Notes: generated by a model from the letters alone, not told the origin. A stretch of 64,000 bases of DNA from an uncultured Gemmatimonadales bacterium (GCA_963817575.1 CAWFOY010000009.1:10780-74779); one strand, 5' to 3'; numbered from the stretch's first letter, positions 16,502 through 42,754 are shown. Translations and numbers: made by a program.

Positions 16502-16525
16502 GTTGGGAGAGCGAGTTACGGGACG

Positions 16526-16564
16526 AAACGAGGCCCCGCGCGTCCAATCCGACGGCGGGGCCTC
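16526..16564 (-). terminator. Hairpin closing islet 1 transcription
   Basis: GAGGCCCCGC/GCGGGGCCTC stem with a short T tract. Confidence 0.5.
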
Positions 16565-16605
16565 CTCGAGTCCCACGGTGGTCAGCAGGCGAGCCTTGCC
16601 CTTCC

Positions 16606-17352: not shown

Positions 17353-17392
17353 GGCGGCTCCGGAGGGATTGGTGGGCGGCGAGCGATTGGGT

Positions 17393-19060: not shown

Positions 19061-19084
19061 CCTTGCCTCGGTGTACCCATGATT

Positions 19085-19116
19085 CGTTCAACGGATACTT
19101 GAGCCGTGGTTGCTCA
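19085..19116 (-). promoter_or_regulatory. Candidate ECF promoter copy (GAGCA-N16-CCGT-N3-ACG)
   Basis: TGAGCAACCACGGCTCAAGTATCCGTTGAACG, 24 nt upstream of ATG 19060. Confidence 0.6.
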
Positions 19117-19230
19117 CGGTCGCCAGGCAGGGCTATGGCCGTTGGCAATCATCACACCCCGCTCGCTCCCATCCGCCCGAACCCAGCCGATCGAACCTGA
19201 CGACCCGAAAGCGATCGTCTGCCCGTCGGC
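19114..19230 (-). pseudogene. Orphan C-terminal fragment of a TolB-propeller lipoprotein paralog
   Basis: ADGQTIAFGSSGSIGWVRADGSERGVMIANGHSPAWRP* aligns with the paralog 3 end PDGQAIAFSSSGDIHWISADGSRQGRIIANGQSPAWRP*. Confidence 0.8.
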
Positions 19231-19260
19231 CTCCCCTCCCCCACACACCGGCCCGGTGTC

Positions 19261-20908
19261 CTATCTCCCGGCGACCGGTGAGGAGGCCCCACGCGACCAC
19301 GCCACCTGGGAATCGCTATACTCCGCCAACGCCGGGGCCTCCGCCTCGGGAATCAACTGTTTCACCTCCCCGGTCGAGATGGTCAGAACAAAGATTCGCC
19401 CGGCGATGTGCGTCCCGTCCGCAGATATAGGTCCGGTGACGTGCCCGAACGCGAGCATGCGCCCATCCGGAGACCAGTCGGCGTTTCCGGAATAGTAGGA
19501 GTTTGTGGGGCGGCGATACAGGATCGTTCGGCTTCCGGTGCCGTCCCAGGCGAGGCTGGCCACCACATGCTCACCGGTTGACATCTCCGGTGTCAAACGC
19601 GATCACGGATCCGTCTGGTGACCAGGCTGGCTCGCTCTCAAACCACTCCAGCGGATCATCGACGCTGACGAGAGGGCGAATCTCGGATCCGTCGGCCTTC
19701 ATGATGTAGATCTGCGACGGCACATCGTACCAATTGCCTCCCCGCACGAACGCGATGCGCTGACCATCGGGTGACCATGCAGGCAAGAAGAGGTAGTCGT
19801 CCGGTTGCATGAAGAGTTCGCTGATAAGCCTGCCGAACCCGAATCCCTCGGCGTCGATCACAGCAATTCCCGCCCCAAGACTGACCGCGACCTTCGTGCC
19901 GTCGGGCGACCACGTTGGGTATTCACCTTCCGCCAGCACTCTCTCCCCGGTGCCGTCGGTGTTCATCACGTAGGTCACGGCTGAGGGCGGGCTGGTACTA
20001 AACGACGTCCGATAAAACGCGATTCTCCGCCCGTCCCACGACAAGGCGGGCCGCTCTCCAGTCGTGAGCCACGTGACGCCCGTACCGTCCGCATTGGCAA
20101 CGTAGATCTGGTCTGTACCGGTGCGATCGCTCACGAAGGCGAGCGCCGGGGGAGGCGGAGGTTCCGCGCCCGTCGTGAAGTTCACGGTGAGCGCGGTCGT
20201 GAGCGCCTCGCCGTCCAGGTCCTGGACCCCTTGGGTGATCTCCAACTCGTACCCCGTGGCTGCCGCCAGGGGCTCCGCGGGCACGAATTCGGCCGTGAGG
20301 TGCTTCGCGTCGGCCACCTGCACCTCTCCGGCCACCTCCGCGAGCCCGCGCTTGAGCCGGATTGTCTTGCCGGTCAGCGTCGTGCCGTCGATCGGCTCGC
20401 TGAAGACGATCACGATCCGGGCATTGAGCGGCACGTCCCGCTTGCCGTCGGCCGGGTCGGTGCGCACGACGATCGGCGGCGCCGTGGCCGGGACCACGAG
20501 CAGGAAGTTCCGCGGGCTCGATCCCGAGCTCACCTTGACTGCGATATCAAGCGTGTCACCGGCAATGGCTTCGACCGCGACGGGATCGAAACCTCCCTCC
20601 ACCATCAGAGCGAGGACCGTGGACCCTGTCCGCCGATTCAGAATCGCCGCCCAGGTGCCGGTCGGAATCTCCCCCGATGCGAGCGAGACGTATGCCACCG
20701 GGGCGTCGCCCCGCGAGCCCGTGACGCTGGCGGTCGCACCGGACGGTATGGCCGGTGCTGAACTGGGAATCGGGTTTGAGACCAGGAACGCCGGTGACGT
20801 GTTCCCTGGGGGACCGAGCGTGTCGGAATCAGAGCTGCATGCGCCCAGCCAGGCCACAGCGGCCGACACCAGCACGGCCCAGGCGAGTCCTGCGACGCCC
20901 CGTCTCAC
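19261..20908 (-). CDS. Lipoprotein paralog 2: N-module + Big_5 + TolB/PD40 propeller, frameshift near 19585
   Basis: GTG at 20908 overlaps the upstream stop; lipobox LGAC; PD40 repeats continue in ORF 19261-19596. Confidence 0.8.
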
Positions 20909-23154
20909 GGTCGCCACGCCGGGCTCTGCCCGTTGGCGATGATCCGGCCTTGCCGGCTTCCGTCCGCGCTGATCCAGTGGATATCCCCGGAGGACGAGAA
21001 CGCGATCGCCTGCCCGTCCGGCGACCAGGTCGGCTTGGCGGGTCCGCCCGACACCGCTATCTGCACAAGTCCGGATCCATCGGCGTTCCGTACCTCCACC
21101 ACACCTGAACTGCAGATGCCAAACGACCAGGGGCAGCTGACGACGGCGAGCCGTTGACCGTCGGGTGACCACGTGGGCTGGAAGTAGTAACTGACCGGCC
21201 AGAAGAAGGAGCCCTCGACCAGCGCCGGCTCGACCAGCGCCGTCACGCCCGAGGTGTCAGCATCCACGACGTACACATCGTAGACGAAGTCGTAGGCCCG
21301 CCAGTCGCTCACGAAGGCAATTTTGCGACCGTCGGGCGACCAAGCCGGGTCGGCATCATATCCGGGAAGGACGACAACAGGGGTCACGCCAGTCCCATCA
21401 TCATCCGCGCTAAGCACGTACACATTCTGACTCCCCTCGCCGCTGGCGGCGAAGGCGATCCGGGCGCCGTCGGGCGACCAGGCCGGCGCCTCGACGTAGC
21501 GGCCGCTCGCGCGCCGGACGAGGTTCGAGCCGTCGGCGTTCATGACGAAGAGGTCCGATGAGTCGGCACGCGCACGGATGAACGAGATCCGCTGTCCGTC
21601 CGGAGACCAGGCCGGGTCGCGATCACCCGGACCGTCCGACAGTTGGACCAGGCCGCTCCCATCCGTGCTCACCTGGTAAATCTGCCCATTGCGCACAAAG
21701 GCGAGTTGCCCCGACGGCGGCGGGATCTGAGGTGGGGTCCCCGGATCCGGCGTGCGGTACCACCCCTCTTCGAGGCCGGCCTGGATGAGGATGTAGTTGT
21801 ACGCAATTGCCACGACGGAATCACCGAGGAGTGTGCCGTACGCATCAAACATTCCACCGTCGTCGGCATCGAACTCGACGAAATCGAAACTGATTGATGA
21901 ACTCGCGCGGGTATATCGACCGGTGTAAATCAAGGTGTCGGACACGATGTCGTACTGCAGCTCGAAACGACCATCGTCGCCGAGCAGGTAGCGGGACTGA
22001 TAGCCGGATTGACTGTGGGGTGTTTCCCGCTCGTACACCGCAGCAACTGACAAGATGGGGACGATGACCCGGAACGTGGCGCTGGTCGCAGCCGTGACTC
22101 CGGTAGCCGATGCCGTGAGCGTGTATCCGATGCCGCCCGCGCTAAGTCGCAGATCAGCGAATATCGCCACGCCCTCATTGGGAGCGACCCTCGTCATTCC
22201 CGCGAGTGACCCACCTCCCGGATTCTGGCCCAGCGCGATCGAAATGCTGTCCGTAAACGCCGGCATGGTGTTGCCCAGGGCATCCTGCACGGTGACCTTC
22301 ACTGCAGGGCTGATCGCCGAGTCCTGCATCGCGTCGCCCGGTTGCCCCGTGAAGACCAATCGGAGGGTGGTGGTTTCGCTGGTGGTGAACGCTATGCTGA
22401 TCGAGTCCTCGAGCGCCTCGCCGTCCAGATCCTCGATTCCCTGCGAGACCTCCAGCTGGTAGCCCGTGCTCGGCGCCAGGGGCTGGTCGGGCACGAACTC
22501 CGCCGAGAGCTGATCCGCGTCGCCAAACTGGACTTGCCCCGGCACGTCGGCGAGCCCACGCTTGAGCCGGATCGTCGTGCCGGTCAGCGTCGTGCCATCG
22601 ATCGGCTCGCTGAAGACGATCACGATCCGGGCATTGAGCGGCACATCCCGCTTGCCATCGGCCGGTTCGGTGCGCACCACGATCGGGGGCGCCGTAAGCG
22701 GCACGTAGAGCAGGAAGCTCAGCAGGCTCGCCCCGGAACTCCCCTCGATCTCGACCGCCAGCGCATCACCGGCTATTGCCTCCATCGCGACAGGACCGAA
22801 GCCGCCGTGCTCCATGGGCGTGGTGATCGTGGTCCCACTGCGCAAGTTCCCGATCCTGGCCGAGATTCCGGTCGGGATCTCGCCCTCCGCGAGCGACACG
22901 TACACGACCGTGGCATCGCCCCGCGAGCCCTCGACACGCGCAACTGTGACGGATGCGCCCTCGGGAGCCGGACCGACCACCGTATCCGACACCACGAGTG
23001 GCGACGGTGTAGCCGGCGGCGGGTCATTCCCCGGCGGACTGAAAGAGTCTGATTCGGAGCCGCAGCCCCCCAGCCAACCCAGACAAATGAGAACCAGCCA
23101 GGTCAGGCCGGGCCAACGCCGTCTTGTCGAGTGATTGATGCGGTCTGTGCTCAT
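20905..23154 (-). CDS. Lipoprotein paralog 3: N-module + Big_5 + Ig-like module + TolB/PD40 propeller
   Basis: ATG 23154 with GAGGGA RBS; lipobox LGGC; five WSPDG repeats. Confidence 0.88.
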   Translation of the reverse strand: MSTDRINHSTRRRWPGLTWLVLICLGWLGGCGSESDSFSPPGNDPPPATPSPLVVSDTVVGPAPEGASVTVARVEGSRGDATVVYVSLAEGEIPTGISARIGNLRSGTTITTPMEHGGFGPVAMEAIAGDALAVEIEGSSGASLLSFLLYVPLTAPPIVVRTEPADGKRDVPLNARIVIVFSEPIDGTTLTGTTIRLKRGLADVPGQVQFGDADQLSAEFVPDQPLAPSTGYQLEVSQGIEDLDGEALEDSISIAFTTSETTTLRLVFTGQPGDAMQDSAISPAVKVTVQDALGNTMPAFTDSISIALGQNPGGGSLAGMTRVAPNEGVAIFADLRLSAGGIGYTLTASATGVTAATSATFRVIVPILSVAAVYERETPHSQSGYQSRYLLGDDGRFELQYDIVSDTLIYTGRYTRASSSISFDFVEFDADDGGMFDAYGTLLGDSVVAIAYNYILIQAGLEEGWYRTPDPGTPPQIPPPSGQLAFVRNGQIYQVSTDGSGLVQLSDGPGDRDPAWSPDGQRISFIRARADSSDLFVMNADGSNLVRRASGRYVEAPAWSPDGARIAFAASGEGSQNVYVLSADDDGTGVTPVVVLPGYDADPAWSPDGRKIAFVSDWRAYDFVYDVYVVDADTSGVTALVEPALVEGSFFWPVSYYFQPTWSPDGQRLAVVSCPWSFGICSSGVVEVRNADGSGLVQIAVSGGPAKPTWSPDGQAIAFSSSGDIHWISADGSRQGRIIANGQSPAWRP

Positions 23155-23311
23155 TCGGTCATCCCTCGACTGACCCCTCGACGGACCTGACCGGCGCTTG
23201 CCGGCTTCCACTTCATGGACGTCAAAACGGGGCATAGCCGTCGCCCACGACGGCCCACGGTGCCCGCCCAGGCGCTCAAACCCCGGGGTGTACCGCGCAC
23301 TAACTGATTTG

Positions 23312-25441
23312 CTACTTGTACCAGAAATCGAATCCGACGTAGCTGAGCCCTTGCCCCACCCGGACGCGCGTGGTTGCGGATTGCCACGGGACTAGCTCCC
23401 AGGTTGCCCCAGAGATACTCGGCGCGACATCCACAAGTCGGACATCATACTCCCCTGGGACGGTCACATCGAAGTGCGCGGACCAGGGGGTGTCATCCCA
23501 GGAGGTCGCCCATTCCGTGTATTGAGCGGGCCCGATCGTCGCTTCGAAATGCACGCCATCGGTACTGGTGCCTGCAACCCCGTTCACCTCGATACGCACA
23601 TCGACTCCGCCCCAATACCCGCTGTCGCAGTTGCCCCAGTCATCCGGTGTTGGTGGATCGGGCAACGCCCAGGGGCACCTGTTGACTCCGACCAGCAGGA
23701 GGGGAGCGCGCGGACGCAGCAGCAGGTCCGGCAGCACGGTTATTTCGCCTTCGACCACCTCGACGGTCAGCGTCGTGTCCGAGTAGAGATGCAGTCCGGG
23801 AAAGATGAGGCTCCAGCCGTGCATCACGGAAACCGCGATCGTCCACGTTCCGGCCGGCAGGAGCCCGACCAGGCCGGACCCGTCGCTATAGTAAGGTACT
23901 CGCCGTAGGTGGGTGGGATCTGAGATCGGGGCCGCGAGCATTTGCGGTATGGCGGGAGAGGGCAGCGGCGCCTGTGTTTCGGCATCGAGTATTCTCAGCC
24001 GGATCGAGTCAAGTCCATCCGTCGGAGGCTCCCTCCCCACACCGAAAGTGACACTCTCTACACTCGTGAGTCCGGGGGCCGATGCCACCAGCGTGACCCC
24101 GGTTGCGCCCCCGATTACCCACAAGTCTTCGAATATGGCCACGCCCTGGAAGGCGGGGACTCGCACCGTCCCGGCCAGCACCCCATCGATCGTATGCTCG
24201 CCCAGTGCGAGGGTGATGCTGTCGGCGAAGTCCGTCACAGTATTTCCCAGCGCGTCCTGCACGGTGACCTCGACCGCCGGACTGATCGGTGATCCCTCGA
24301 CCGCACCACTCGGCTGGACGGTGAACACCAGCCGGGTGCCGGGAAGGTTTCCACCAGTGACACTGAACGCCTCGCTCGTGTCACTTGGGACCCCACCGGC
24401 TGAAGCCGCGAGTCGGTACCCGACCCCGTTGACGTCCAGTCGTAGATCGGGGAACGTCGCAACGCCCCCCACGGCTGCCACTCTCATCGTGCCTGCCAGA
24501 GACCCGCCAGCTGGATTCTGGCCAAGCCCAACGGTGATACTATCCGAGAATGCCGCGACGGTGCTGCCCTGGGCGTCCTGCACCCTGACCTCGACCGCCG
24601 GGCTGATCACTGCGCCCGCTAGGACGTTGCTAGGCTGCACTGCGAAGGCCAGATGCAAGGCCGCGGCAGTGGTCGTGGTGAACTCGACGCTGACTGGCTC
24701 CTCGAGCGGCTCGCCGTCCAGGTCCTCGATCTCCTGGGTGATCAACACCTTGTATTCGGTGCTCGGCGCGAGGGGCTCGGCAGGCACGAATTCCGCGGTC
24801 AGTTGACCCGCGTCGGCGAACTGGACCTCTCCGGCTACCTCGACAAACCCGCGCTTGAGCCGGATTGTCGTGCCGCTGAGCGTGTTCCCGTCGATCGGTT
24901 CGCTGAAGACGATCACGATCCGGGCATTGAGCGGAACGTCCCGCTTGCCGTCGGCCGGCTCGGTGCGCACCACGATGGGCGGCGCCGTGGCTGGCACCCT
25001 GAGCAGGAAGCTCAGCCGGTTCGGCCCGGAGCTCACCTCGATCTCCAGGGTGTCGCCCGCAGCGGCCTCCACCGCCACCGGATCGAAGCCGCCCGCCACC
25101 ATCGGCGTGGTCACCGTGGCCCCGGTGCGCAGGTTCTGGATGGTGGCCGAGGTGCCGGTCGGGATTTCCCCTTCGGCGAGCGACACGTAGACCACGGCGG
25201 TCAGCTCGCGGGAGCCCGCGACGTTCGCACCAGTCACGGAAGCTCCAGCGGGCGCCGCGCCCAATACCGTGTCCGACACAAGGAGTGGTGAGGGCGGCGT
25301 CGGCGAGGGGTCATCCACAGGCGGACTGAGGGAGTCCGAATCGGAACTGCAGCCCCCAATCCAGGCCAGCAGGACCAAGGCCAGCCCCGTCCAGCCAAGC
25401 CGGTGCGTCCACGCGGAGAGTCTGATGCGCTCGGTCCTCAT
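23312..25441 (-). CDS. Lipoprotein paralog 4: N-module + Big_5 + two Ig-like modules + unique C-terminal domain
   Basis: ATG 25441 with GGAGGG RBS; lipobox IGGC; two L.F.VQPS...ISPAVEV.VQDA repeats. Confidence 0.87.
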   Translation of the reverse strand: MRTERIRLSAWTHRLGWTGLALVLLAWIGGCSSDSDSLSPPVDDPSPTPPSPLLVSDTVLGAAPAGASVTGANVAGSRELTAVVYVSLAEGEIPTGTSATIQNLRTGATVTTPMVAGGFDPVAVEAAAGDTLEIEVSSGPNRLSFLLRVPATAPPIVVRTEPADGKRDVPLNARIVIVFSEPIDGNTLSGTTIRLKRGFVEVAGEVQFADAGQLTAEFVPAEPLAPSTEYKVLITQEIEDLDGEPLEEPVSVEFTTTTAAALHLAFAVQPSNVLAGAVISPAVEVRVQDAQGSTVAAFSDSITVGLGQNPAGGSLAGTMRVAAVGGVATFPDLRLDVNGVGYRLAASAGGVPSDTSEAFSVTGGNLPGTRLVFTVQPSGAVEGSPISPAVEVTVQDALGNTVTDFADSITLALGEHTIDGVLAGTVRVPAFQGVAIFEDLWVIGGATGVTLVASAPGLTSVESVTFGVGREPPTDGLDSIRLRILDAETQAPLPSPAIPQMLAAPISDPTHLRRVPYYSDGSGLVGLLPAGTWTIAVSVMHGWSLIFPGLHLYSDTTLTVEVVEGEITVLPDLLLRPRAPLLLVGVNRCPWALPDPPTPDDWGNCDSGYWGGVDVRIEVNGVAGTSTDGVHFEATIGPAQYTEWATSWDDTPWSAHFDVTVPGEYDVRLVDVAPSISGATWELVPWQSATTRVRVGQGLSYVGFDFWYK

Positions 25442-25461
25442 GATGCCCTCCCTGCACGCAT

Positions 25462-25493
25462 CGTTGGACGGCCGCGCAATCCCTGGTTGCTCA
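25462..25493 (-). promoter_or_regulatory. Candidate ECF promoter copy
   Basis: TGAGCAACCAGGGATTGCGCGGCCGTCCAACG, 20 nt upstream of ATG 25441. Confidence 0.6.
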
Positions 25494-28400
25494 TCGAGCC
25501 CCACCGACCACAACGAATCCGGCCCAATGAAACGGGTGCCCGGTCGCCGGCAGGCGCAGCAGCTCGCGCTGCGCCTCCGCCAACGCCCGTTCCGGCTCCG
25601 CGCCCGCTGCCAGGCCCCGGTAGAACTCCTCCATCAGGGCGCCCGTTGCCCGGTCCTCGACGGACCACAGCGTGGCGACGACCCGCGCCGCCCCGGCGTG
25701 GAGGAACGCCCGGCTCAGCCCGACCCAGTCATCCCCAGCCGGCACGTCCGCCAGCGCCCCGGAGCCGAGCGCGGTCTGGCAGGCGGACAGAACGATGAGG
25801 TCTGCCGCGAGGTCCAGACCGAAGACCTCGTGCACCTCGAGGCGCCCATCGTGTGCGGCATCGGGCCCGAACTCCACATAAGAGAACAGCGGATTCTGCT
25901 TGTTGAGCACGCCGTAGCCTGCCAGGTGCAGCACCCGCCGCGATGGCGCCTCGCGGCGGAATGCCGACTCGGATGCCGCGGCGCCGGTCAGGACCGTGGT
26001 GCCGGATCCCGTCAGCCGCGCGATTGCCCGAACCTCCCCGAGCGAGGCCGGCAAGGCGTCGGGCCGGGGGGCCAGCGCGAGTGCCCCTGCCGACGCCCTG
26101 CCCTTCCGACGGTTCCCCAGCGCGAGCCAGACCGACGCCGACGGCGTCTGCGCCAGCTCGAACCGCTGCACCAGATACCTCCGGCTCCCCGGGTCGAGCA
26201 GCGCCGCGAAGGGCAGATAGTGCAGCTCGGCGTGCGGAACGAAGATCAGTCGCTTGGCGCCTGCGAGCAGGCCGGACGCGTCGATGGGGGCGATCAGGTA
26301 TTCGTGCAGCCGCCTCAACGGGCTCCGCCATAACGAATCGCCGCGCACGGAACCCCGGCTCTCCAGGGTGCCGCGCGCGAGTTCGACCAGCCTGGCCAGG
26401 TCGGGTCGTCCGACGCCGAGGTCCACAACCGCCAGCGTGTCCCGCCTCACGACGAACGCCAGCGATGCCGAGTCGCTCAGGAGGTACTCGATGAAGACCT
26501 CATCCCCCTCGAGACGGCGCGCGACGTCCTGCCAGGACGCGGGTTCGGCCGTGAGGAGCGACGCCTGCGCCGGAGCGCGATCCCGCATGTCGAGCAGGAC
26601 CGTGGCATAGGCGTCCTGCGCGCGCGTGAGCGCCTCGCGTCTCTGTGCGTCGCCCGGCGACTCACTCGGGCCGCGGAGCGCAACCGGCCCGCTGGGTGCG
26701 CGCTCCGGATCCCGGACCAGCTCGGCCATTCGATGCTGCAGGTCCTGCGCCCGACCCAGGAGCGCCGCCGCCGTGTCCGACGGCGCGCCAATCCGCCCCC
26801 GCATCAACATTTCGAGCATCTCCCGGGCACGCAGCCGTTCGCTGGCGTCGAACGCGCTCCCGGGCCGGTTCCGCTCCCGTTCGAATAGTGCGAGCCGGGC
26901 GTACACTTCCCATTTGTCCGACAGGAATGCCGAGCGGCGCTCCGCCAGCCGGAGCGACCGCCCGGAGCGTTCCACCTCACTGATCGCGGCGCGCAGCTCG
27001 CGCACTGCGCGGTCCGGCGAACCGCGAGCATGCTCCACATTTCCAAGCCCGGCATGAAGCCGCCACGCGATGTCCGGCGCGATGCGATCGGCCAGGCGCC
27101 CGAGTCCGGCGCGATAGAGCGAATCCGCCACCCGCCACCGGCCGGCCTCAGCCTCGAGCGCCGCACGACCCTCGAGCGCGGCGGCGGCTCCCACCGGATC
27201 GCCCAATTCCGAAAGCTCTTCGGCTGCCCGGGTGAATTGACGCGTTGCCCCAGCCATGTCGCCCGCCGCCTGGGCCGCGTAACCCAGCGAGATCCGGGTG
27301 AGCGCGGCCGCACGCATGTTTCCGACGACTGACTGGGTGCGCATCGCGCCGGTCAGCAGCGACTGTGCCTGCTTCGCCTCGCCGCGCTCGAGCAGCAGCA
27401 CACCACGCCCAGACTGCGCCTCGGCCTGGCCGGCTGGATCGGCCGCCCGGCCGTACAGCCCTTCGGCCTGGAGATACAGGCGCTCCGCTTCAGCGAAGTC
27501 ATTGAGTTGGAACGCGAGGTCCGCGCGTGCGAGGATCAGATCGGCTCGCACACCAGGAGGCACCTTGGCGGAGTCGGCCAGATCCTGCGCACGTCGCAGG
27601 AGGTCGACCGCACCCTGCAGGTTTCCCGCGGCGCCGAGCGCACCAGCCAGCGTCCGTCGCACCGCAATGGCTTCGACCACCGGACCCGTGCGGTCGTAGA
27701 TGGTCTGTGCCTCGACCAGCACGCTGCGTGCAGCGGGGTAGTCCCCACGCCGCAGCTCGAGCTGGCCGAGGCCGTGCAGCGCGGCGGCGACATCGGTCCA
27801 GGCCTCGCGCGGGCGCCAGGTCGCGATCGCATCTCGGTACAGCGCCTCGGCACGCCCGAAATCGCCCTCCAGGGTCGCAATGCCGGCGAGGTTCACCAGA
27901 TTCGTCGCCGCGACGGCGTCACGCCCATCCCGGCGATTGATGTCGAGCGCGGCCTCGAAGTGCCGTCGCGCCTCGTCCTGGTCCCCAAGCCTCTGCGCCA
28001 ACAGGCCGAGGTTGTTGTGGTCTGCCGCCAAGCCGCGCCTATCTCCGGTGCGCTCGCGGAGCGCCATCGCCCGCGAATACCGGTCCCGGGCGGCGGCCAG
28101 GTCGCCGCGCTCCTCGCTCACACCGGCTAGCAGGCCGAGGGCGTTCGCTTCGACGCGGGCATCCCCCACCGCGGCCGCCGCTACGCGGGCACGCTCGAGG
28201 TAAAGCCCCGCACTGTCGGCAACTCGCTCGACCAGAAATCCCGCGCCGATGTTCCCCAGCACAGCGGCGACACCTGCGCTGTCACCGATCGCCATCGAGC
28301 CCGCGAGCGCCCGTCGCCAGAGGGCGATAGCTGCCTGGGGGCCATCCCGGCTGTAGGCTGAGACGCCGGCCCGCCGCACGCTGTCCGCGCGGACTTTCGC

Positions 28401-28703
28401 GGCCCGCCGCTCCCCGGGCCACGCCGCGAACCGGTCGACCTCACGCAGGAAAAAGGAATCACGCCACGCGAGCGCATACGCCACCGCCAGGCGGCGCGTC
28501 GCTGCAAGTTCCGTCGTTGCCGACGCCGGGAATCGGACTGCCCTCGCCATTCCCTCGGCGACGGCCTCTCGCACCTCATACGGTCGCGCCCGCGTTTCAA
28601 GCACCAGCTCGGATCCCGATCGGCCCTGTGCGAGAAGCCGCAGGGAATCCGCCCCCGGCGACTGAAGCGCCACGATCGCCAGCACCAGCGGGAAGGCTGT
28701 CAC
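25491..28703 (-). CDS. TPR-CHAT (caspase-like) protein, catalytic His replaced by Tyr
   Basis: Long TPR array (NNLG, NLA); VPHAELHYLPF, HLAGYG, LSACQT, ATLWSVED, HPFHWAGF; GTG 28703 overlaps the anti-sigma stop; hydrophobic N-terminus. Confidence 0.9.
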   Translation of the reverse strand: MTAFPLVLAIVALQSPGADSLRLLAQGRSGSELVLETRARPYEVREAVAEGMARAVRFPASATTELAATRRLAVAYALAWRDSFFLREVDRFAAWPGERRAAKVRADSVRRAGVSAYSRDGPQAAIALWRRALAGSMAIGDSAGVAAVLGNIGAGFLVERVADSAGLYLERARVAAAAVGDARVEANALGLLAGVSEERGDLAAARDRYSRAMALRERTGDRRGLAADHNNLGLLAQRLGDQDEARRHFEAALDINRRDGRDAVAATNLVNLAGIATLEGDFGRAEALYRDAIATWRPREAWTDVAAALHGLGQLELRRGDYPAARSVLVEAQTIYDRTGPVVEAIAVRRTLAGALGAAGNLQGAVDLLRRAQDLADSAKVPPGVRADLILARADLAFQLNDFAEAERLYLQAEGLYGRAADPAGQAEAQSGRGVLLLERGEAKQAQSLLTGAMRTQSVVGNMRAAALTRISLGYAAQAAGDMAGATRQFTRAAEELSELGDPVGAAAALEGRAALEAEAGRWRVADSLYRAGLGRLADRIAPDIAWRLHAGLGNVEHARGSPDRAVRELRAAISEVERSGRSLRLAERRSAFLSDKWEVYARLALFERERNRPGSAFDASERLRAREMLEMLMRGRIGAPSDTAAALLGRAQDLQHRMAELVRDPERAPSGPVALRGPSESPGDAQRREALTRAQDAYATVLLDMRDRAPAQASLLTAEPASWQDVARRLEGDEVFIEYLLSDSASLAFVVRRDTLAVVDLGVGRPDLARLVELARGTLESRGSVRGDSLWRSPLRRLHEYLIAPIDASGLLAGAKRLIFVPHAELHYLPFAALLDPGSRRYLVQRFELAQTPSASVWLALGNRRKGRASAGALALAPRPDALPASLGEVRAIARLTGSGTTVLTGAAASESAFRREAPSRRVLHLAGYGVLNKQNPLFSYVEFGPDAAHDGRLEVHEVFGLDLAADLIVLSACQTALGSGALADVPAGDDWVGLSRAFLHAGAARVVATLWSVEDRATGALMEEFYRGLAAGAEPERALAEAQRELLRLPATGHPFHWAGFVVVGGAR

Positions 28704-29377
28704 GGGACGCCGTCCGGTGCGATCGAGAAGGTGACCGGGGCGGAGGCCGCCCACCGGTCCCAGCCGGTGCGGGCCTCCACCATCCACAGGTAGGTGCGGC
28801 CCGGCTCGAGCGTGGCCGAGTCCGGCAGGGCGAGCATCGTGTCGGAGGTTTCACCGCCAAAAACGATCTCGCTGTTGGAATCGAAGACGATGATGCGGTA
28901 CCGGTCCGCGCCGGGAACGGCCGTCCACCGCAGGAGACTTCCTTCGGCGACGACGCCGACCGGCGACACCAGCATCGGAGTTGCCGCTGGCGAGGAGGTT
29001 CCGCGATGCGGTGGCGGCACCACTTCGACGCGGCGGGGCAGCGCGAAGACCACCAGCAGAATGGCCGCTGCCGTCAGGGGAACGGCGAGGCGGGCGAAAC
29101 GGCGGAATGGATGCATCACCGGCTGCGGGACAGCGACGCGCACGTCCTCGTCGGCCAGCAGCCGGGCAACGGAGGCGACGGCGGCCCGGCAGTGCGGGCA
29201 GCCGGCCAGGTGCGACACCGCACCCTCGCGTGCTTCCGCCGCGAGCGTCCCGTCGGCAAGCGACGCGAGCGTGACCTCGTTGAGGCACTCGGGGCCACGC
29301 GGGGACGGTGCCTCGGCGGCTCGGAGCGAGGGCGCCAGCAGGCGGCGGAGGCGATCGAGGTCTTCGGGGTGGGTCAC
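28700..29377 (-). CDS. Zinc-finger (ZAS/zf-HC2) membrane anti-sigma factor with extracytoplasmic Fn3-like domain
   Basis: HLAGCPHC (HxxxCxxC), TM helix, W..VPGA..Y...L.PG..Y.W.V; GGAGG RBS. Confidence 0.85.
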   Translation of the reverse strand: MTHPEDLDRLRRLLAPSLRAAEAPSPRGPECLNEVTLASLADGTLAAEAREGAVSHLAGCPHCRAAVASVARLLADEDVRVAVPQPVMHPFRRFARLAVPLTAAAILLVVFALPRRVEVVPPPHRGTSSPAATPMLVSPVGVVAEGSLLRWTAVPGADRYRIIVFDSNSEIVFGGETSDTMLALPDSATLEPGRTYLWMVEARTGWDRWAASAPVTFSIAPDGVP

Positions 29378-29421
29378 GCGGATGCGTCCTCCAGGGCGGC
29401 TCGCTTCGACAGATACGTGGA

Positions 29422-29453
29422 CGTTAGACGGCCAGAGATACCCCGAGTGCTCA
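29422..29453 (-). promoter_or_regulatory. Candidate ECF promoter copy
   Basis: TGAGCACTCGGGGTATCTCTGGCCGTCTAACG, 44 nt upstream of the anti-sigma start. Confidence 0.6.
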
Positions 29454-30224
29454 CAGGTCTCCCCGAGGGAGTTCATCCTGCGCCAGTCGTTCCCGAAGCG
29501 CGGCCAGGGCGCGGTACACCCGGTTGTACACCGCCTTGGCGTTCGGAAGCCCGACGATGCGGGCGATGTCGGCGGCGGGAAGCTCCTCCACCACGTACAG
29601 GTGAACCGCCGACCGATCCACGGGATCCAGGGAGGCCAGGATGCGATCGAGGACTGCCTTTCGTCCGGCTGCATCGACCGGGTCCGCTGTTTCCGGTTCA
29701 TCCTCCAACGGCGGTGGCGGTCCGAATTCGCGAAGCACGCGGCCACGCCGGCCATTGGTGACGGACCGGTACGTGGCCCGGAGATCGGCGAGAAAGTCCC
29801 GGAAGGTCAGCCCGGGAGCCTCGCTCGCGCGGAGGAGCTCGTAGGATTCAATGTGACTACGGCGTTGAAGGAAGACGTGCTCGAAGATCCGGCGCCGGAG
29901 GGGTGGCAGCGTGGCGGCGAGGGCGGAGATCCGGTGCCGTCCGTCGCGCTGGCGGAACCAGTCGATTGTGAGGTGGCGGACCACCGTGACCAGCCAGGTG
30001 GAGAATTGAGCCCGGGGATGTGGTTCGGAGGCCCAGATCCGAAGGCGCCGCAGGTCGTCTTCGCGAAGGGCCTCGCAGACCCGGGCGAAGACATCCATCA
30101 CATCATCGTAGTCCTGGGCATAGTGCCGGATGGACGCGAAAATGAGGCGCCGGTACCGGGTAACCACCAGGTCCCACGCAGCCTCCGGCCTGCCTGCATT
30201 CAGCTCGTCGACCCACGGTTCCAT
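29451..30224 (-). CDS. ECF-type sigma-70 factor with an insertion between regions 2 and 4
   Basis: AAWDLVVTRY, FSTWLVTVVRHLTIDWFR (region 2), IARIVG...VYNRVYRAL (region 4). Confidence 0.88.
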   Translation of the reverse strand: MEPWVDELNAGRPEAAWDLVVTRYRRLIFASIRHYAQDYDDVMDVFARVCEALREDDLRRLRIWASEPHPRAQFSTWLVTVVRHLTIDWFRQRDGRHRISALAATLPPLRRRIFEHVFLQRRSHIESYELLRASEAPGLTFRDFLADLRATYRSVTNGRRGRVLREFGPPPPLEDEPETADPVDAAGRKAVLDRILASLDPVDRSAVHLYVVEELPAADIARIVGLPNAKAVYNRVYRALAALRERLAQDELPRGDL

Positions 30225-30301
30225 CCGCGCCAACTATCCCAGGGATGGAAGACCCAATAGCGCCCGGGAACTTCAACTGTCAAGAGAGGACCCGTCGGCG
30301 C

Positions 30302-30832
30302 CTAGACCTCCACGACCACGTGCACGGGAGCGCCGCTTAGCGCGGCCCTGCCCTTGAGCGCGGGGATCTCCAGCAGGAAGGTGTAGCCCACGAGCCGTCC
30401 CTTGAGTTGGGCAACCAGGTCGGCGGCCGCGGCGGCCGTCCCACCGGTCGCAAGGACGTCATCCACCACGATGATCCTGCTGTCCTCAGTGAACTCATCC
30501 CGGTGCGCCTCGAGCGTATCGTCGCCGTACTCCAGCGTAAACACCTTCCGCACTGTCTCCCACGGCAGTTTACCGGCCTTCCGGGCCGGGATGAACCCGG
30601 CACCCAGCGCTGCGGCGATCGCGCCGCCGAGAATGAACCCGCGGGCCTCGATCGCGAGCACGTGCGTCACGCCCTGCCGAAGGAAGGGCTCAGACATCCC
30701 GTCCACCGCGGCCTTGAAGAGCGCCGCATCTCGGAGCACCGGCGTGATGTCCTGGAAGGTGACTCCGAGCTTGGGATAGTCGGGAATGGTCCTGAGCGAG
30801 CCCTTGATTCGGCCTGCTGTCAGCTCTGCCAT
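30302..30832 (-). CDS. apt: Adenine phosphoribosyltransferase
   Basis: IPDYPK.G..FQDIT, EARGF, RKAGKLP, VDDVLATGGT. Confidence 0.97.
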   Translation of the reverse strand: MAELTAGRIKGSLRTIPDYPKLGVTFQDITPVLRDAALFKAAVDGMSEPFLRQGVTHVLAIEARGFILGGAIAAALGAGFIPARKAGKLPWETVRKVFTLEYGDDTLEAHRDEFTEDSRIIVVDDVLATGGTAAAAADLVAQLKGRLVGYTFLLEIPALKGRAALSGAPVHVVVEV

Positions 30833-30864
30833 GGGATGGAATCCAAGTGAAGAGGAATCGCCAA

Positions 30865-31137
30865 CTATCTGATTTCAAACGTCATGAAACGTTCGGAGTC
30901 ATCCGAAATCTCGGTCAAGTCCACATTCGTGACATTCGCCATCGCCGGCCCGCGCCTGAGCCGCGACAGGAAGGCCTCGACCGCGCCATCCGGCCCGGCC
31001 GCCTCCCCCACCACGGCTCCGTCGGGCCGGTTTCGGACCCACCCCACGATTCCGAGCCGGTGGGCTTCCCGGCGGGCGAAATAGCGAAACCCAACCCCCT
31101 GGACCTCGCCCTCGACCACGAAGCCGACGGTTCTCAC
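30865..31137 (-). CDS. acyP: Acylphosphatase
   Basis: GEVQGVGFR, GWVRNRPDG. Confidence 0.93.
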   Translation of the reverse strand: MRTVGFVVEGEVQGVGFRYFARREAHRLGIVGWVRNRPDGAVVGEAAGPDGAVEAFLSRLRRGPAMANVTNVDLTEISDDSERFMTFEIR

Positions 31138-31769: not shown

Positions 31770-31778
31770 GCGGAAGAC

Positions 31779-33181: not shown

Positions 33182-33199
33182 TGGAACGGAATATAGCCC

Positions 33200-36523: not shown

Positions 36524-37797
36524 GCGGCCACCGGCGTGCCGAGAGAGTCTGTGAAACAGTGTGAGAAGCGGATTTCGACCGGCAACTGCGACTGGAGGAC
36601 GTGGGCGTCGAGATCGTCCATGAAGAGACCGTCGTCGTTGATACTCTCGGCCGGCAGCAGGGCGAGGTCGAGGTCCCGACGGTCGCGGAGGGCGGCGAGA
36701 ATGGCCGCGCCCGGCAGCAGGCCCGCCGTCGTCACCGAGGGGCCGAAGAGCGTGTTCTCGAGCGTCAGCAGCTCGAGAGTGGCGCCGGTGGCCTCGGCCA
36801 GTGGGGCGAGCACCTGCGGCATCAGGGCCCCCATCGAGGCGCCGGTCACGACACCGATCCTCCTGCCCCGCCATCCGCCGAGGCTTTCGATGCCGTCCGC
36901 GATCTTCTGCTGCAGGTAACGCACGGAGCCGACGCCGTTCTCGACCTGCTCGAACCCATCGTAGGCCTCGGGCGCGGGCAGGTCGAGATGGGCCCGCAGG
37001 TACAGCTCATCCGCGCCGTGGCACCACGTGATCCCGCGCTCCGCCCGGGCGATCGCGGCATGACGCTCCACCAGCTTCACCGCCGCCCGGCATTCGTCCA
37101 CCGTCGGCTCGCGCACCAGGTGATGCTTGCTGAACTCCGTGAGCCCGACCGGGACCACCGATACACTCAACACCGCCGGGCCGAACCCGTAGAGGTCGTC
37201 CAGGGATTGTTCGAGCACCGCCCCATCATTCACGCCCGGGGACATCACGACCTGCGTATGAAACTGGATGCCGTGCGTGGCGAAATGGCGCAGCTGCGGG
37301 AGGATCTCGGGCGCGGTCGGGTTTCGAAGCAGCCAGCGGCGGACCGTCGGATCGGTGGCGTGAACCGACACGTACAGCGGCGAGAGTCGATACTCGATGA
37401 TCCGCTCGGTGTCGCGCGGCTTCAGATTGGTCAGGGTCGCGAAATTGCCGTACCGGAAGGAGAGCCGGTAATCGTCGTCCCGGATGTAAAGCGTGTCTCG
37501 GAGGCCCGTGGGAAGGCCATCGACGAAGCAGAAATCACACCGATTGGCGCAGCGGCGGATCCTCGGCGGCTCCAGCCCGGCCCCCATCGCGAGGCCTTCC
37601 GGCCTCTCGACATCGAATTCGATCTCCTCGCCACCCGGCTGGCGGACGTGGAGGAGGAACGCGTCATCGGCGGTGAGGAACTCCCAATCGAGGAAGTCCT
37701 CCAGTTCGCGCCCGTTGACGGACAATAACTCCGTCCCGGGCACGAGGCCGAGTTCGTCGGCCAACGAGCCGGGTTCGACAGCATTCACCTTGATCAT
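36520..37797 (-). CDS. DUF512 / PDZ-like putative radical-SAM protein
   Basis: N-terminal PDZ-like region, CANRCDFC, DDDYRLSF, QVENGVG. Confidence 0.88.
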   Translation of the reverse strand: MIKVNAVEPGSLADELGLVPGTELLSVNGRELEDFLDWEFLTADDAFLLHVRQPGGEEIEFDVERPEGLAMGAGLEPPRIRRCANRCDFCFVDGLPTGLRDTLYIRDDDYRLSFRYGNFATLTNLKPRDTERIIEYRLSPLYVSVHATDPTVRRWLLRNPTAPEILPQLRHFATHGIQFHTQVVMSPGVNDGAVLEQSLDDLYGFGPAVLSVSVVPVGLTEFSKHHLVREPTVDECRAAVKLVERHAAIARAERGITWCHGADELYLRAHLDLPAPEAYDGFEQVENGVGSVRYLQQKIADGIESLGGWRGRRIGVVTGASMGALMPQVLAPLAEATGATLELLTLENTLFGPSVTTAGLLPGAAILAALRDRRDLDLALLPAESINDDGLFMDDLDAHVLQSQLPVEIRFSHCFTDSLGTPVAA

Positions 37798-37927
37798 CGA
37801 GGCGAAAGATGTCGCTATCGCCCTGATTTTTCAAGACTTAGGCCTTCACAAGTAATCTGTTTTCGAACCGCACGACAAACTCACGACGGCTTCACCGCCG
37901 ATTCAGTCCCGACAGTTAGCTTGGGTC

Positions 37928-39246
<1,319 letters not shown>

Positions 39247-39297
39247 GTCCGTCGGGTGCGGGCTAGACGCGAACCGGGATTCCCGGGTCGGGGAGCG

Positions 39298-40728
39298 CTA
39301 TCGCGCGGTCCCGAGCCCTGGCCGGTAGAGCGAGGCGATTCGCTGAGCGCGGAATACGTATCCCGGATTGCCGTGAATCTCCCACATCACGTTCCCCGCC
39401 GCGTCGTATTCCTGGACCCGGTTCCCGTTCCCGTACGCCACGAGGAGCCGGCCCATCGGCAGCTGCTGCGTGGACCCGCCGAGGATTGCGTTGACCGGCG
39501 GTCCCGAAAAGTAGGAGCTCGTCAGCTGGGCGGTGTATGCCACCTCGTCCACGACGTATCGCTCGGCATGGGAATCCCCCACGTCGCCGCGATTGTCGAG
39601 CAGTTGCAGTTGACCCGGGCCGACGACCCGGAGTCCGTGCTGGCCGACGAATCCGGCCGCGATCCCGCTGAGCGCGAACTGGTTCCGGAGGCCACCGAGC
39701 CGCCAGAGGACCTCGCCGGTCGTCTTGTCGATCTTGGTGACCTCGTTCAGGCTGCGGAATGAGAGCACCAGGTTTCCGTCGGCATCGAAGTCGATCGAGT
39801 TGCCGTGGGTCCAGTTGACGGTCGCTCCGGTCCGGCTGGCGGGATCGAGGTCGGTGATCTCGAAGTGATCGAAGGGGGTCCAGGCAAACAGGACGGCACC
39901 GTTGGCGGCCAGGTGCTGCACGGCGGTCCCCGTGACGGTCGCGGCCGGCAGGCCGCCGTAGGCGGTCAGATCCATGACCCTGGAGTCATCACACAGCATC
40001 CAGGCGGAGCCGTCGGATTCTTCCACCATCTCATGAAAGCGGGCAATGAGCCCGTTCCCGCACCCGAGCCGGCGAGTCTCATTGCCGAGCGGATCGAACT
40101 CCACCCAGGGCGTGGGATCTCCAGGCGCCGGCGCAATCGGACTTGTCGTATAGCGCCCGGTCGGCTGCACCTGAAAGTTGAGCGTCGGCCCGCCGTCGAG
40201 GTGCCGGTACCAGACGACACGTCCCGTGTTGTCGATCACCACGCCGTAGGGATAAGCCGCGAAGACCACGAACCCCGGGGTTGGGTCTGGTCCACCGGCC
40301 GTATAAGTCGGCAGGTCGGCGGGCAGCGCGCCGGTCGTGAGCAGGAGGGTATCGCCCGGGGTCGACCCTCCTTCCCCGTACGCGATGACCTGCAGCCGAT
40401 ACGCGGTGGCCGGTAGGAGGCCCAGGACCGGGATGTCCGCCGAGTCCGATGGCAAGGACATCATCGGGGTCAGGCTGTCCAGCCCCGCCCCTTCCGTGCC
40501 GAAGCGGACCCTGGCGCTGTCGGCGTCGGCGAATGAGACGCTGACGACGGCCGACAGGACGTTGTGCGGACCGGGTGCGACCGCGGCATGAAGCACGGTC
40601 GGAGGCGTGGGGGGGACTGGCCCCTGCGGCTCGTCGGTGCACGCCACCAGCGCCGCCACGGCCACCATGGCGCGCGCCGTGACGAGCCCATAGCCTCTTC
40701 GCACGATTTGGTCCACGTTCAGGTGCAT
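39298..40728 (-). CDS. Arylsulfotransferase (ASST)-like lipoprotein
   Basis: Lipobox LVAC; FHE, WTHGNSI, GQH, LDN motifs typical of ASST propellers. Confidence 0.8.
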   Translation of the reverse strand: MHLNVDQIVRRGYGLVTARAMVAVAALVACTDEPQGPVPPTPPTVLHAAVAPGPHNVLSAVVSVSFADADSARVRFGTEGAGLDSLTPMMSLPSDSADIPVLGLLPATAYRLQVIAYGEGGSTPGDTLLLTTGALPADLPTYTAGGPDPTPGFVVFAAYPYGVVIDNTGRVVWYRHLDGGPTLNFQVQPTGRYTTSPIAPAPGDPTPWVEFDPLGNETRRLGCGNGLIARFHEMVEESDGSAWMLCDDSRVMDLTAYGGLPAATVTGTAVQHLAANGAVLFAWTPFDHFEITDLDPASRTGATVNWTHGNSIDFDADGNLVLSFRSLNEVTKIDKTTGEVLWRLGGLRNQFALSGIAAGFVGQHGLRVVGPGQLQLLDNRGDVGDSHAERYVVDEVAYTAQLTSSYFSGPPVNAILGGSTQQLPMGRLLVAYGNGNRVQEYDAAGNVMWEIHGNPGYVFRAQRIASLYRPGLGTAR

Positions 40729-42692
40729 GTCACGGCGAACGCGACGTCCGTCGTCGCTCCGAACGTGAGGCTCACCGGTACGTTGTTCGGGCTGGTCACC
40801 GTGCAATTCGCGGGCACCTGATCCAGGACCACGGTATGGGGACCTGGCGGCAAGGAAATCTGGACTTCGCCGGTCGAGGGAATGGCCGCGGTGTAGAGGT
40901 AGTACCAGCCGTAGTAATAGTCGTGATAGAGATCCACGCCGACGAGGTAAGTCGCCGGGGGGTTCGGACCGGTGGTCGTAACCGTCGCGCGGAGAACTGG
41001 GTTGGCGGCACAGGACACCGGGAAGTTCACATAGGTGATCGCCCCAGCAACCACATTCACGGACGTCGGATTGGAACCGCTCACGGTGCAGTTGGGCGCG
41101 ATATCCTCGAGGCCTATCGAGCGCGTGCCGGCGAGCAAGGTCAGCGACACGCCGCTGCCGGAGGTCAGGCCCGACTTGTAGCTCCCGTCTACCGAGACCC
41201 AGTAGCTCGCGTCGACGTCGACCCCGCTCGTCGGCGCGCTGACAACCACCGTGCCGGCGGCAACACAGGCGAGGTTCACCGACACGGTCGTAATCTGCCC
41301 GCTGAGCACGCTGAATGTGCCCGACATTGGACCGCCACTGCAATTCTCGGCTACGTCCCCGAAGTAGTAGTAGTACGAGTCGGCAGGGAGCTCGATCTCG
41401 ACGGTCCCATTCGACGATACCCCTCCCGCCCAGAGCGCGTAATAGCAGTACAAATCGCTGCCGGAACAAACCGAGAGGTAGTACGCATCGTCAGAGTTTT
41501 CTCCCGTCGTCGTCACGATCACGTCGAGCCCGCTGGTCCGCGGCTCGAGCGTGCAGGCCACGTCGAATTCCACGACGGCCGTGTCCCCCACGGCCACCTC
41601 GGCCGTCGCGGGATTGGGATCGCTCACCGCGCAGTTGGATGCGACGTCATCGAGGAGGATGGAGTGGCTCCCCGCGCCCAGGTGTGTGATCACGATGCCA
41701 ACGCCTGACGGCAGCGCGGTCGGCGCCCCCCCATCGATTCGCACGGCGTACACGGGGTCCGGGCTCTGGCCGGTCGTGTTGGCGGTGACCCGGAGCGCCC
41801 CTGTGGTGCCGGTGCAGGTCACCGCATAGGAGACGTGGGCAGTATCCCTGACGACCCCACCGACCTCGATGGTCACTTGCTGCGGATTGGAGCCCGCTCC
41901 CTCGCAGTTCGAGGCCAAGTCGCTGAAGTTGACGCTGTGCGCGCCGCCGGGCACGCCCGTGAACCAGAGTACGCCGTTCGGCACGATGGTCTGAGCGGCA
42001 CCGCCGTCGAGACTGACATCGTAACCGTCCGCGTCGGCGTCGGGACCAGTTGTCGGCGCCGTGACTCTGATTACCCCGGTCTGCGCCGTGCAGCGCACTT
42101 GCATCGTGACGTGGGCGACAGTTCTCACGAGGCCACCGACTTCCACGTTCACCTCGAGGGGGTTCGCTCCGGCCAGGCCGCAATTGCTCGCCGTCCCGGT
42201 GAGGCTGACGGTGTGCGTCCCACCCGGCACCGGCGCGAACAGCGCGAGGCTGGTCGGAAGCACCGGCTTGGCCGGGCCATCATCGAGGCTCAGCTCATAC
42301 CCATCGCCGTCCGGATCCGGGCCGGTTGTCTGGATCGTGACCTCGATAATTCCGGTGATCGCCGTGCAGCGCACCCCGAAGGTGAGTTCGGAGGTCTCCC
42401 CCGGATACACGGTGATCGACTGCGTGGCCTCCGTTGTGGGGGAGCAATTCGGGGCAAGTCCGACCAGCTCGAACGTGTGCTCTCCGGCTTCGATGTCGAC
42501 CCGCACCGAGCCCGAACCCGAAAACGTGTTGGCGGAAGCACCGTCAATCGTGACCACGTAGCCGTCGGGATCCGGATCCAGACCCGCGGCGGCAACCGTG
42601 ATGCGAACCTCCCCGTTACCGGGGGAGGCCGGGTCGTTGCAGGCAATGGTAGCAATGATGCCCAGCAGGAGGGCCGAACGGGGGATTTTCAT
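40719..42692 (-). CDS. Lipoprotein with seven ~90-aa Cys-paired Ig/PEGA-like repeats
   Basis: Lipobox TIAC; repeat pattern G...VT..TTG...D..Y.V..DG...H...L..A.NC...V.F.V.C. Confidence 0.85.
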   Translation of the reverse strand: MKIPRSALLLGIIATIACNDPASPGNGEVRITVAAAGLDPDPDGYVVTIDGASANTFSGSGSVRVDIEAGEHTFELVGLAPNCSPTTEATQSITVYPGETSELTFGVRCTAITGIIEVTIQTTGPDPDGDGYELSLDDGPAKPVLPTSLALFAPVPGGTHTVSLTGTASNCGLAGANPLEVNVEVGGLVRTVAHVTMQVRCTAQTGVIRVTAPTTGPDADADGYDVSLDGGAAQTIVPNGVLWFTGVPGGAHSVNFSDLASNCEGAGSNPQQVTIEVGGVVRDTAHVSYAVTCTGTTGALRVTANTTGQSPDPVYAVRIDGGAPTALPSGVGIVITHLGAGSHSILLDDVASNCAVSDPNPATAEVAVGDTAVVEFDVACTLEPRTSGLDVIVTTTGENSDDAYYLSVCSGSDLYCYYALWAGGVSSNGTVEIELPADSYYYYFGDVAENCSGGPMSGTFSVLSGQITTVSVNLACVAAGTVVVSAPTSGVDVDASYWVSVDGSYKSGLTSGSGVSLTLLAGTRSIGLEDIAPNCTVSGSNPTSVNVVAGAITYVNFPVSCAANPVLRATVTTTGPNPPATYLVGVDLYHDYYYGWYYLYTAAIPSTGEVQISLPPGPHTVVLDQVPANCTVTSPNNVPVSLTFGATTDVAFAVTCT

Positions 42693-42722
42693 GGCTCCGC
42701 CTCCGCGACGATGGATCATCAT

Positions 42723-42754
42723 CGTGAGACGGACGGCGGGTTGACGAATGCTCC
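42723..42754 (-). promoter_or_regulatory. Candidate ECF promoter copy (islet 2)
   Basis: GGAGCATTCGTCAACCCGCCGTCCGTCTCACG, 30 nt upstream of ATG 42692. Confidence 0.5.

Follow-up and report, generated by a model that had tools for sequence, protein, structure and literature searches.

The closest described counterpart of the locus reported here is the DdvS/DdvA pair of Myxococcus xanthus, in which a sigma factor of the extracytoplasmic function (ECF) type is paired with a transmembrane zinc anti-sigma factor with a periplasmic TPR-CHAT domain (PMC6061681, PMC11506125). Four DdvS promoters mapped by rapid amplification of cDNA 5' ends share GTAA-N16-CGT (PMC6061681), and the DdvA paper reports fused DdvA-like proteins only from Myxococcota and one Comamonas species. 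We analyzed a 64,000-nucleotide (nt) stretch, hereafter called the window, from an uncultured Gemmatimonadales bacterium (GCA_963817575.1, CAWFOY010000009.1:10780-74779). It encodes an ECF-type sigma factor, an anti-sigma factor and a TPR-CHAT protein in succession, and four copies of the motif GAGCA-N16-CCGT-N3-ACG precede genes in two separate islets. These four sites, P1 to P4, are very probably cognate promoters of the local sigma factor, driving the genes for the anti-sigma factor and the caspase-like TPR-CHAT protein together with those for lipoproteins with immunoglobulin (Ig)-like and beta-propeller domains, including an operon that encodes an arylsulfotransferase (ASST)-family lipoprotein.

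Further described systems bear on parts of this arrangement. In Escherichia coli, the sigma-E-dependent promoter rseA P3 lies inside rpoE and drives rseABC (PMC8595263). In the type III-E CRISPR system craspase, the TPR-CHAT protein Csx29 is associated with Csx30 and the ECF-like CASP-sigma (PMC10028731). An AAC-type -35 element, a CGT-type -10 element and a spacer of 16-17 nt are described for generic ECF (group IV) promoters (PMC6061681). Our literature search found no account of an ECF sigma factor, its promoter or a CHAT-linked anti-sigma factor in Gemmatimonadota, and the main text of the ECF re-classification paper (PMC7826278) mentions neither CHAT nor Gemmatimonadetes.

Judged from sequence, DdvS/DdvA is the closest known system and shares both logic and promoter geometry with the present locus. 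In each case a single-pass anti-sigma factor with a zinc motif and a TPR-CHAT part outside the cytoplasm are encoded after the sigma gene, and several nearby operons carry one motif, GTAA-N16-CGT as reported for DdvS and GCAA-N16-CGT here. Additionally, the fused anti-sigma/TPR-CHAT frame found in two related loci (L019 and L102) matches the architecture of DdvA. In the window, unlike in DdvA, the anti-sigma factor and the CHAT protein are encoded by two translationally coupled genes. The catalytic His is replaced by Tyr or Phe in 46 of 49 orthologues of the CHAT protein, whereas DdvA keeps H862 and C907 (PMC11506125), two residues whose spacing of 45 equals that of the corresponding positions here. 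The predicted targets are Big_5, PD40, Big_2, RCC1 and ASST lipoproteins, whereas the DdvS regulon is described as CBASS/type III-B CRISPR. The sigma gene of the window carries no motif and most members of the group would lack positive autoregulation, whereas the reported promoter PddvSA drives ddvS. Lastly, the two sigma sequences are not close.

P1 would resemble rseA P3 as a sigma-dependent promoter at or in the 3' end of the sigma gene that gives the anti-sigma gene its own transcription, and thereby negative feedback. A putatively cognate motif in this position, at or inside the sigma 3' end and before the anti-sigma gene, is found in 69 of 78 orthologous loci. E. coli is described as adding a sigma-E promoter before rpoE, whereas no motif precedes the sigma gene in 61 of 74 loci, the source genome included; motif and proteins are also unrelated in sequence to those of E. 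coli. The locus shares with craspase, as described, the genetic linkage of a TPR-CHAT protein to a sigma factor with its inhibitor; in contrast to craspase, it has no CRISPR, its CHAT protein is apparently exported, and Tyr takes the place of the catalytic His of Csx29. With generic ECF promoters the motif shares the bipartite form, a spacer fixed at 16 nt and a -10 element with CGT. It differs in its -35 element, GAGCA(A/G)T rather than GGAAC-like, and in a long conserved -10 extension, CTCAyG, and the sigma factor itself appears to differ from generic ECFs in carrying an extra domain.

Motif copies in the source genome

The motif was first described in an initial annotation made from the sequence alone, which listed four 32-nt copies with identical spacing on the minus strand. 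All four strings and their coordinates proved exact (Table 1). The copies end 44 nt before the anti-sigma GTG at 29377 (P1), 20 nt before the lipoprotein 4 ATG at 25441 (P2), 24 nt before the lipoprotein 1 ATG at 19060 (P3) and 30 nt before the repeat lipoprotein ATG at 42692 (P4), in agreement with the 20-44 nt originally given, and a GGAGG-like Shine-Dalgarno sequence precedes each start codon. The leading TGA serves as the stop codon of the sigma gene at P1 (29453-29451), of the CHAT gene at P2 (25493-25491) and, at P3, of the final fragment of lipoprotein 2 (19116-19114). The same annotation had assigned three such stops to unrelated upstream genes; the stops are there, but the genes are operon neighbours. 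It had also called for a comparison with background frequency, and here the exact pattern occurs four times in the window against 0.01 expected from 100 dinucleotide shuffles, none of which reached four.

The source assembly (G000) is a soil-type Gemmatimonadota genome of 2,785,399 bases in 16 contigs, with 68% G+C and a rated completeness of 76.8%, in which the window is C9:10780-74779. To rank sites across it, a weight matrix was derived from 55 non-redundant sites at sigma/anti-sigma junctions, all from other genomes, and the whole assembly was scanned on both strands with the reversed genome as control. P1 (30.5 bits), P4 (29.1 bits), P2 (24.2 bits) and P3 (19.4 bits) took the first four ranks in that order, above a next-best match of 16.7 bits and a control maximum of 17.7 bits. 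Because the matrix was built without any source-genome site, this ranking is not circular. A genome scan for the motif was among the checks that the initial annotation had proposed, and it thus returned the four window sites as the top four of the genome. P3 is the least secure of them. The short core GAGCA-N16-CCGT alone occurs 27 times in the source genome; the signal is a handful of good sites and not a general excess of the pattern.

Scanning the assembly for the exact pattern gave five matches, namely the four window sites and C11:245778-245808 on the minus strand (L001:7779-7809), about 130 nt before a peptidase-like lipoprotein gene whose product gave a weak LapA-type aminopeptidase match. 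With a matrix score of 12.0 bits, within the control range, this fifth match was rejected as a regulon member and is probably due to chance. A one-mismatch site at 20931-20901 was likewise rejected, since its register differs and it results from conservation at the C-terminus of lipoprotein 3. Within the limits of this incomplete assembly, the predicted regulon consists of the four promoters in the window.

Conservation of the motif and its link to the sigma gene

Orthologues of the sigma factor were present in 7 of the 60 relatives searched, and all six full-length orthologues among them had GAGCA-N16-CCGT 0-14 nt past the sigma stop codon, with unrelated spacers. A scan of one genome per species extended the set to 80 loci with sigma identities of 44-75%, all labelled Gemmatimonadota except for one labelled Chloroflexi. 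At the 78 assessable junctions the core was exact in 54, had one mismatch in 9 and was neither in 15, four of which carry the same boxes at a 15-nt spacer. By matrix, a junction site of at least 16 bits was found in 69 of 78 orthologous Gemmatimonadales loci. In one group of loci (L041, L054, L057, L059 and L060) the anti-sigma start overlaps the sigma stop (ATGA), with the motif about 43 nt within the coding sequence of sigma and a second copy ahead of the sigma gene.

The 55 junction sites give the consensus tGAGCA(A/G)T-N12-G(T/G)CCGTCTCA(T/C)G. We read (T)GAGCA(A/G)T as the -35 element and (G/T)CCGTCTCA(T/C)G as the -10 element, with 16 nt between GAGCA and CCGT, an arrangement equivalent to GCAA-N16-CGT. 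Conservation extends to columns on which the choice of sites did not depend: T at +6, G(T/G) ahead of CCGT and CTCA(T/C)G behind it. The ACG that originally closed the motif holds in part. Its A, three bases past CCGT, is near-invariant (53 of 55 junction sites), but its CG is only (T/C)G in the orthologues.

This conservation bears directly on whether the four matches might be chance occurrences, or functionless leftovers of gene duplication. P2 and P3 do precede paralogous lipoprotein genes and share part of their spacer, and the pattern was defined after the sites had been seen. Against these points stand the 0.01 matches expected, the unrelated genes behind P1 and P4, the recovery of all four sites by the matrix from other genomes, and conservation over 80 species-level genomes with divergent spacers, among which the range of sigma identity excludes near-identical copies of one sequence. 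An origin by chance or duplication is thus extremely improbable.

Conservation alone is silent on which molecule reads the element, and in many orthologues the CA(T/C)G that follows CCGTCT overlaps the ATG. Both points could also fit a non-promoter role, either as the operator at which a DNA-binding regulator acts or as a signal at the RNA level within the 5' leader. We consider this highly improbable. A pair of short boxes kept at a constant 16 nt from each other, with a spacer free to vary, has the geometry of a promoter, and the boxes are neither inverted nor direct repeats of each other. Additionally, the sigma/anti-sigma pair are the only regulator genes conserved beside the sites, and downstream of each site there is space for a Shine-Dalgarno sequence and the start codon.

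To find further targets, we scanned 1,150,474 bases around the 80 sigma orthologues at a cut-off of 16 bits, with the reversed sequence as control. The 138 matches (against one in the control) comprise 62 junction and 76 non-junction sites, and 72 of the latter lie on the strand of the sigma gene. An open frame follows 73 of the 76 non-junction matches: 54 are target genes and 12 are sigma genes, and the other 7 are anti-sigma genes with the motif some 43 nt within the coding sequence of sigma. A lipoprotein-type signal begins 45 of the 54 target genes. Pfam searches on 51 targets, three of them from the window, returned Big_5 (22), PD40 (17), Big_2 (15), RCC1 (12), Big_1 (11) and fn3 (5). Sites equivalent to P2 follow CHAT orthologues in other genomes.

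The second islet, with the repeat lipoprotein and ASST genes, has counterparts elsewhere. One contig of genome G052 begins inside a CHAT orthologue, after which come two lipoprotein genes, each behind a copy of the motif (23.7 and 33.4 bits), and then an ASST homologue. In G001, of the same genus as the source, the site orthologous to P4 scores 33.3 bits and lies where a contig of 2.9 kb ends. The second islet is therefore tied to the unit of sigma, CHAT and lipoprotein genes. Two high-scoring matches in these nominally sigma-less genomes sit at contig ends.

In 13 of 74 loci the motif stands 50-122 nt before the sigma gene, the classical autoregulatory position of an ECF sigma factor. Across these 74 loci, the scores of the 300 nt ahead of the sigma gene have a bimodal distribution, with 13 at 16-30 bits and the rest at 6.7 bits or below. 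The source genome falls in the second class: its best score in the 300 nt upstream of the sigma gene is -9.6 bits, and no cognate site precedes the gene. Additionally, within a genome, junction and target sites tend to share the base that follows CCGT, A with A in 11 of 13 and C with C in 39 of 41. This base also varies with residue 83 in sigma-2, where H or Y goes with A in 10 of 13 junction sites and R with A in 2 of 51. Together, the agreement within genomes and the covariation with residue 83 are suggestive of a link between the motif and the local sigma factor, though not statistical proof of one.

These results also speak to the question of whether the motif might be the promoter of another alternative sigma factor encoded elsewhere in the genome, with the local one a mere neighbour. 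A first look gave about 11 sigma-like candidates in the source assembly, the sigma gene here has no motif copy, and pattern counts do not separate sigma-bearing from sigma-less genomes. On the other side, all four source-genome sites above the control maximum lie within 13 kb of the local sigma gene, and elsewhere the sites cluster beside its orthologue and on its strand. The local sigma factor is likewise favored by the 13 of 74 loci with the motif ahead of the sigma gene, and by the covariation of a sigma-2 residue with a -10 base. Another sigma factor is very unlikely to be the one that reads the motif.

Several observations nevertheless weigh against our assignment of the sites to the local sigma factor. 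The genomes compared are kin, and counts across them overstate independence; the A-type sites in particular may trace to one clade or two. Allowing up to two mismatches puts the pattern at background level, with 10.8 matches expected and 17 found, and GAGCA-N16-CCGT is rarer than its reversed control in five relatives, a background level genome-wide. The 13-base pattern has 27 matches in 8 sigma-bearing genomes and 102 in 53 without the sigma gene; since the counts are at the level of the reversed controls, presence or absence of matches does not by itself track the sigma factor. P2 and P3 are not mutually independent, given the paralogy of the genes that they precede. At 19.4 bits, P3 also lies below the one control match in related loci (20.6 bits). 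Finally, the sigma factor has an unusual middle domain (described below), so the promoter geometry cannot simply be assumed from two-domain ECFs.

On balance, the proposal in the initial annotation of a bipartite ECF-type promoter read by the local sigma factor gains support from the 69 of 78 junctions, the top-four ranking and the sigma-upstream sites in 13 of 74 loci. Its remark that the motif is missing before the sigma gene itself agrees with the best upstream score of -9.6 bits. The predicted targets, an anti-sigma/CHAT unit and surface lipoproteins, fit the 45 of 54 lipoprotein-like target genes elsewhere. Homologous loci had been named as a place to look for enrichment, and the 76 non-junction sites with a single control match come from there. 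Inclusion of an operon 12 kb away is likewise favored, with P4 ranking second and an ASST gene beside the CHAT/lipoprotein cluster in G052.

Proteins and gene order of the two islets

The sigma protein matches Pfam Sigma70_r4_2 (E 5.7e-11) and Sigma70_r2 (E 1.2e-4), and scores 59 bits with TIGR02937 (sigma70-ECF) against a cut-off of 42.9. About 90 residues separate the two Pfam domains, of which residues 100-167 are conserved in the alignment and helical in the model. The best full-length fold matches are three-domain sigmas (Staphylococcus aureus SigB at E 2.5e-4, WhiG and sigma-28), followed by ECFs, all with low TM-scores, and a sequence search of the PDB gave weak ECF matches only. The protein is thus ECF-type, but is probably not a minimal two-domain ECF, having an extra conserved helical domain.

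Table 1. Coordinates of predicted promoters and genes in the two islets, numbered from the first base of the window
Feature	Position	Strand	Description
Phosphoribosyltransferase gene	30832-30302	-	First in mapped transcription order, before the sigma gene
Possible housekeeping-type promoter of sigma gene	30254..30283	-	TTGACA-N18-TATTGG; weak -10 match
ECF-type sigma factor, 257 amino acids	29451..30224	-	Sigma-2, conserved helical insert (about residues 100-167), sigma-4
P1	29422..29453	-	TGAGCAC-N15-CCGTCTAACG; -35 overlaps sigma stop codon; predicted promoter of anti-sigma and TPR-CHAT genes
Anti-sigma factor, 225 amino acids	28700..29377	-	N-terminal HxxxCxxC zinc motif, one membrane helix, small outer domain
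TPR-CHAT protein, 1070 amino acids	25491..28703	-	Pfam CHAT (E 2e-63) and TPR
P2	25462..25493	-	TGAGCAA-N15-CCGTCCAACG; overlaps CHAT stop codon; predicted promoter of lipoprotein 4
Lipoprotein 4	23312..25441	-	Big_5 Ig-like domain; first gene after P2
Lipoprotein 3	20905..23154	-	Big_5 and PD40 beta-propeller; 157 nt after lipoprotein 4
Lipoprotein 2	19114..20908	-	Big_5 and PD40; start overlaps lipoprotein 3 stop (GTGA)
P3	19085..19116	-	TGAGCAA-N15-CCGTTGAACG; predicted promoter of lipoprotein 1; weakest of the four
Lipoprotein 1	17393..19060	-	Big_5 and PD40; gene after P3
P4	42723..42754	-	GGAGCAT-N15-CCGTCTCACG; predicted promoter of repeat lipoprotein/ASST operon
Repeat-rich lipoprotein, 657 amino acids	40719..42692	-	No Pfam family; internal repeats by blast; first gene after P4
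ASST-family (arylsulfotransferase) lipoprotein, 468 amino acids	39298..40704	-	Pfam Arylsulfotran_2 (E 3.8e-22); start 14 nt past preceding stop

The possible housekeeping-type promoter of the sigma gene was not called by a consensus promoter scan of 16000-31000, which returned one promoter-like and six terminator-like sites, both counts at shuffle level. Before the sigma orthologues, TTGACA-N16-TATATC occurs about 53 nt upstream of the start, and 28 of 74 loci are within three mismatches of TTGACA/TATAAT. This sequence is probably the housekeeping-type promoter of these Gemmatimonadales. Its conservation is strong in many orthologous loci, including L028, L032, L036, L038 and L044.

The product of the next gene matches Pfam zf-HC2 (E 3.8e-4, below the gathering score) and, weakly, RslA (3hug_B, E 0.014). 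A gene in this place, with HxxxCxxC and one membrane helix, fits a co-encoded cognate anti-sigma factor. The GTG start of the CHAT gene overlaps the anti-sigma stop codon (GTGA), and the CHAT protein has a hydrophobic, signal-like N-terminus. Its CHAT domain aligns with Csx29 (E 5.7e-5), with Tyr930 opposite the His in the 'CHG' motif of Csx29 and Cys975 retained. Across 49 aligned orthologues the catalytic-His position holds Y in 33, F in 13, and N, S and H in one each, while the Cys and a His four residues upstream of the catalytic-His position are found in all 49. The CHAT protein may thus be a pseudo-protease, or may use this conserved upstream His. Searches of the sigma factor, the anti-sigma factor and the CHAT protein against solved structures gave weak matches only and no match to DdvS/DdvA.

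In two related loci, L019:7457-11455 (minus strand) and L102:5561-9523 (plus strand), the anti-sigma factor and the TPR-CHAT protein form one open frame, of 1333 and 1321 amino acids, respectively. These fused frames support the anti-sigma factor and the TPR-CHAT protein acting together. Of the 59 junction sites with a called downstream open frame, one leads to a frame of more than 600 amino acids.

Lipoprotein 3 has no motif of its own, as the gap after lipoprotein 4 gave no matrix match above 8 bits. Lipoprotein 2 spans three successive frames (20908-19571, 19602-19261 and 19260-19114), which imply two frameshifts and could reflect a decaying paralogue or an error in the metagenome assembly. 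Downstream of lipoprotein 1, at 15676-17352 on the minus strand, lie a 248-amino-acid open frame without a family and a 220-amino-acid TPR protein with a weak YfiO/BamD-like match.

A predicted feedback circuit and its meaning

The motif, its positions, conservation and covariation, and the gene content of the islets can be read directly from the DNA, and from these we infer how the circuit may work. The sigma gene would probably be transcribed from its housekeeping-type promoter. Because the consensus scan found no terminator-like site between the sigma gene and the anti-sigma gene, read-through from the first to the second may provide basal co-transcription. Free sigma factor would bind the motif, with transcription predicted to start a few nt past the -10 element. 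Firing of P1 would yield more of the zinc-type membrane anti-sigma factor and of the translationally coupled, exported TPR-CHAT protein, a negative feedback that would reset the switch, and the CHAT protein may act on the anti-sigma factor outside the cytoplasm. Firing of P2 (lipoproteins 4, 3 and 2), P3 (lipoprotein 1) and P4 (the repeat and ASST lipoproteins) would yield a set of exported Ig-like and beta-propeller lipoproteins.

A bolder version of this circuit can be put forward, although we think it unlikely. Here a three-domain, ECF-derived sigma factor would work by pure negative feedback, and a secreted, His-less CHAT pseudo-caspase would sense or scaffold on the outer domain of the anti-sigma factor without cutting it. 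The output would be a switchable coat of Ig-like and beta-propeller lipoproteins. If true, the system would be related to the sigma switches of DdvA and craspase but would operate without proteolysis.

Gemmatimonadota are a common soil phylum whose regulation appears to be little studied. Under the promoter assignment that we favor, the present locus yields a testable promoter consensus and a predicted regulon of exported Ig-like and beta-propeller lipoproteins. Possible uses of the motif include an orthogonal promoter/sigma pair, and metagenome annotation could take it as a marker of this regulon. The circuit layout would be that of a constitutive sigma gene with a sigma-driven inhibitor. Additionally, the link between TPR-CHAT proteins and sigma factors known from DdvA and craspase would be extended to a split form without the catalytic histidine, which raises the question of whether proteolysis is needed for such switches.

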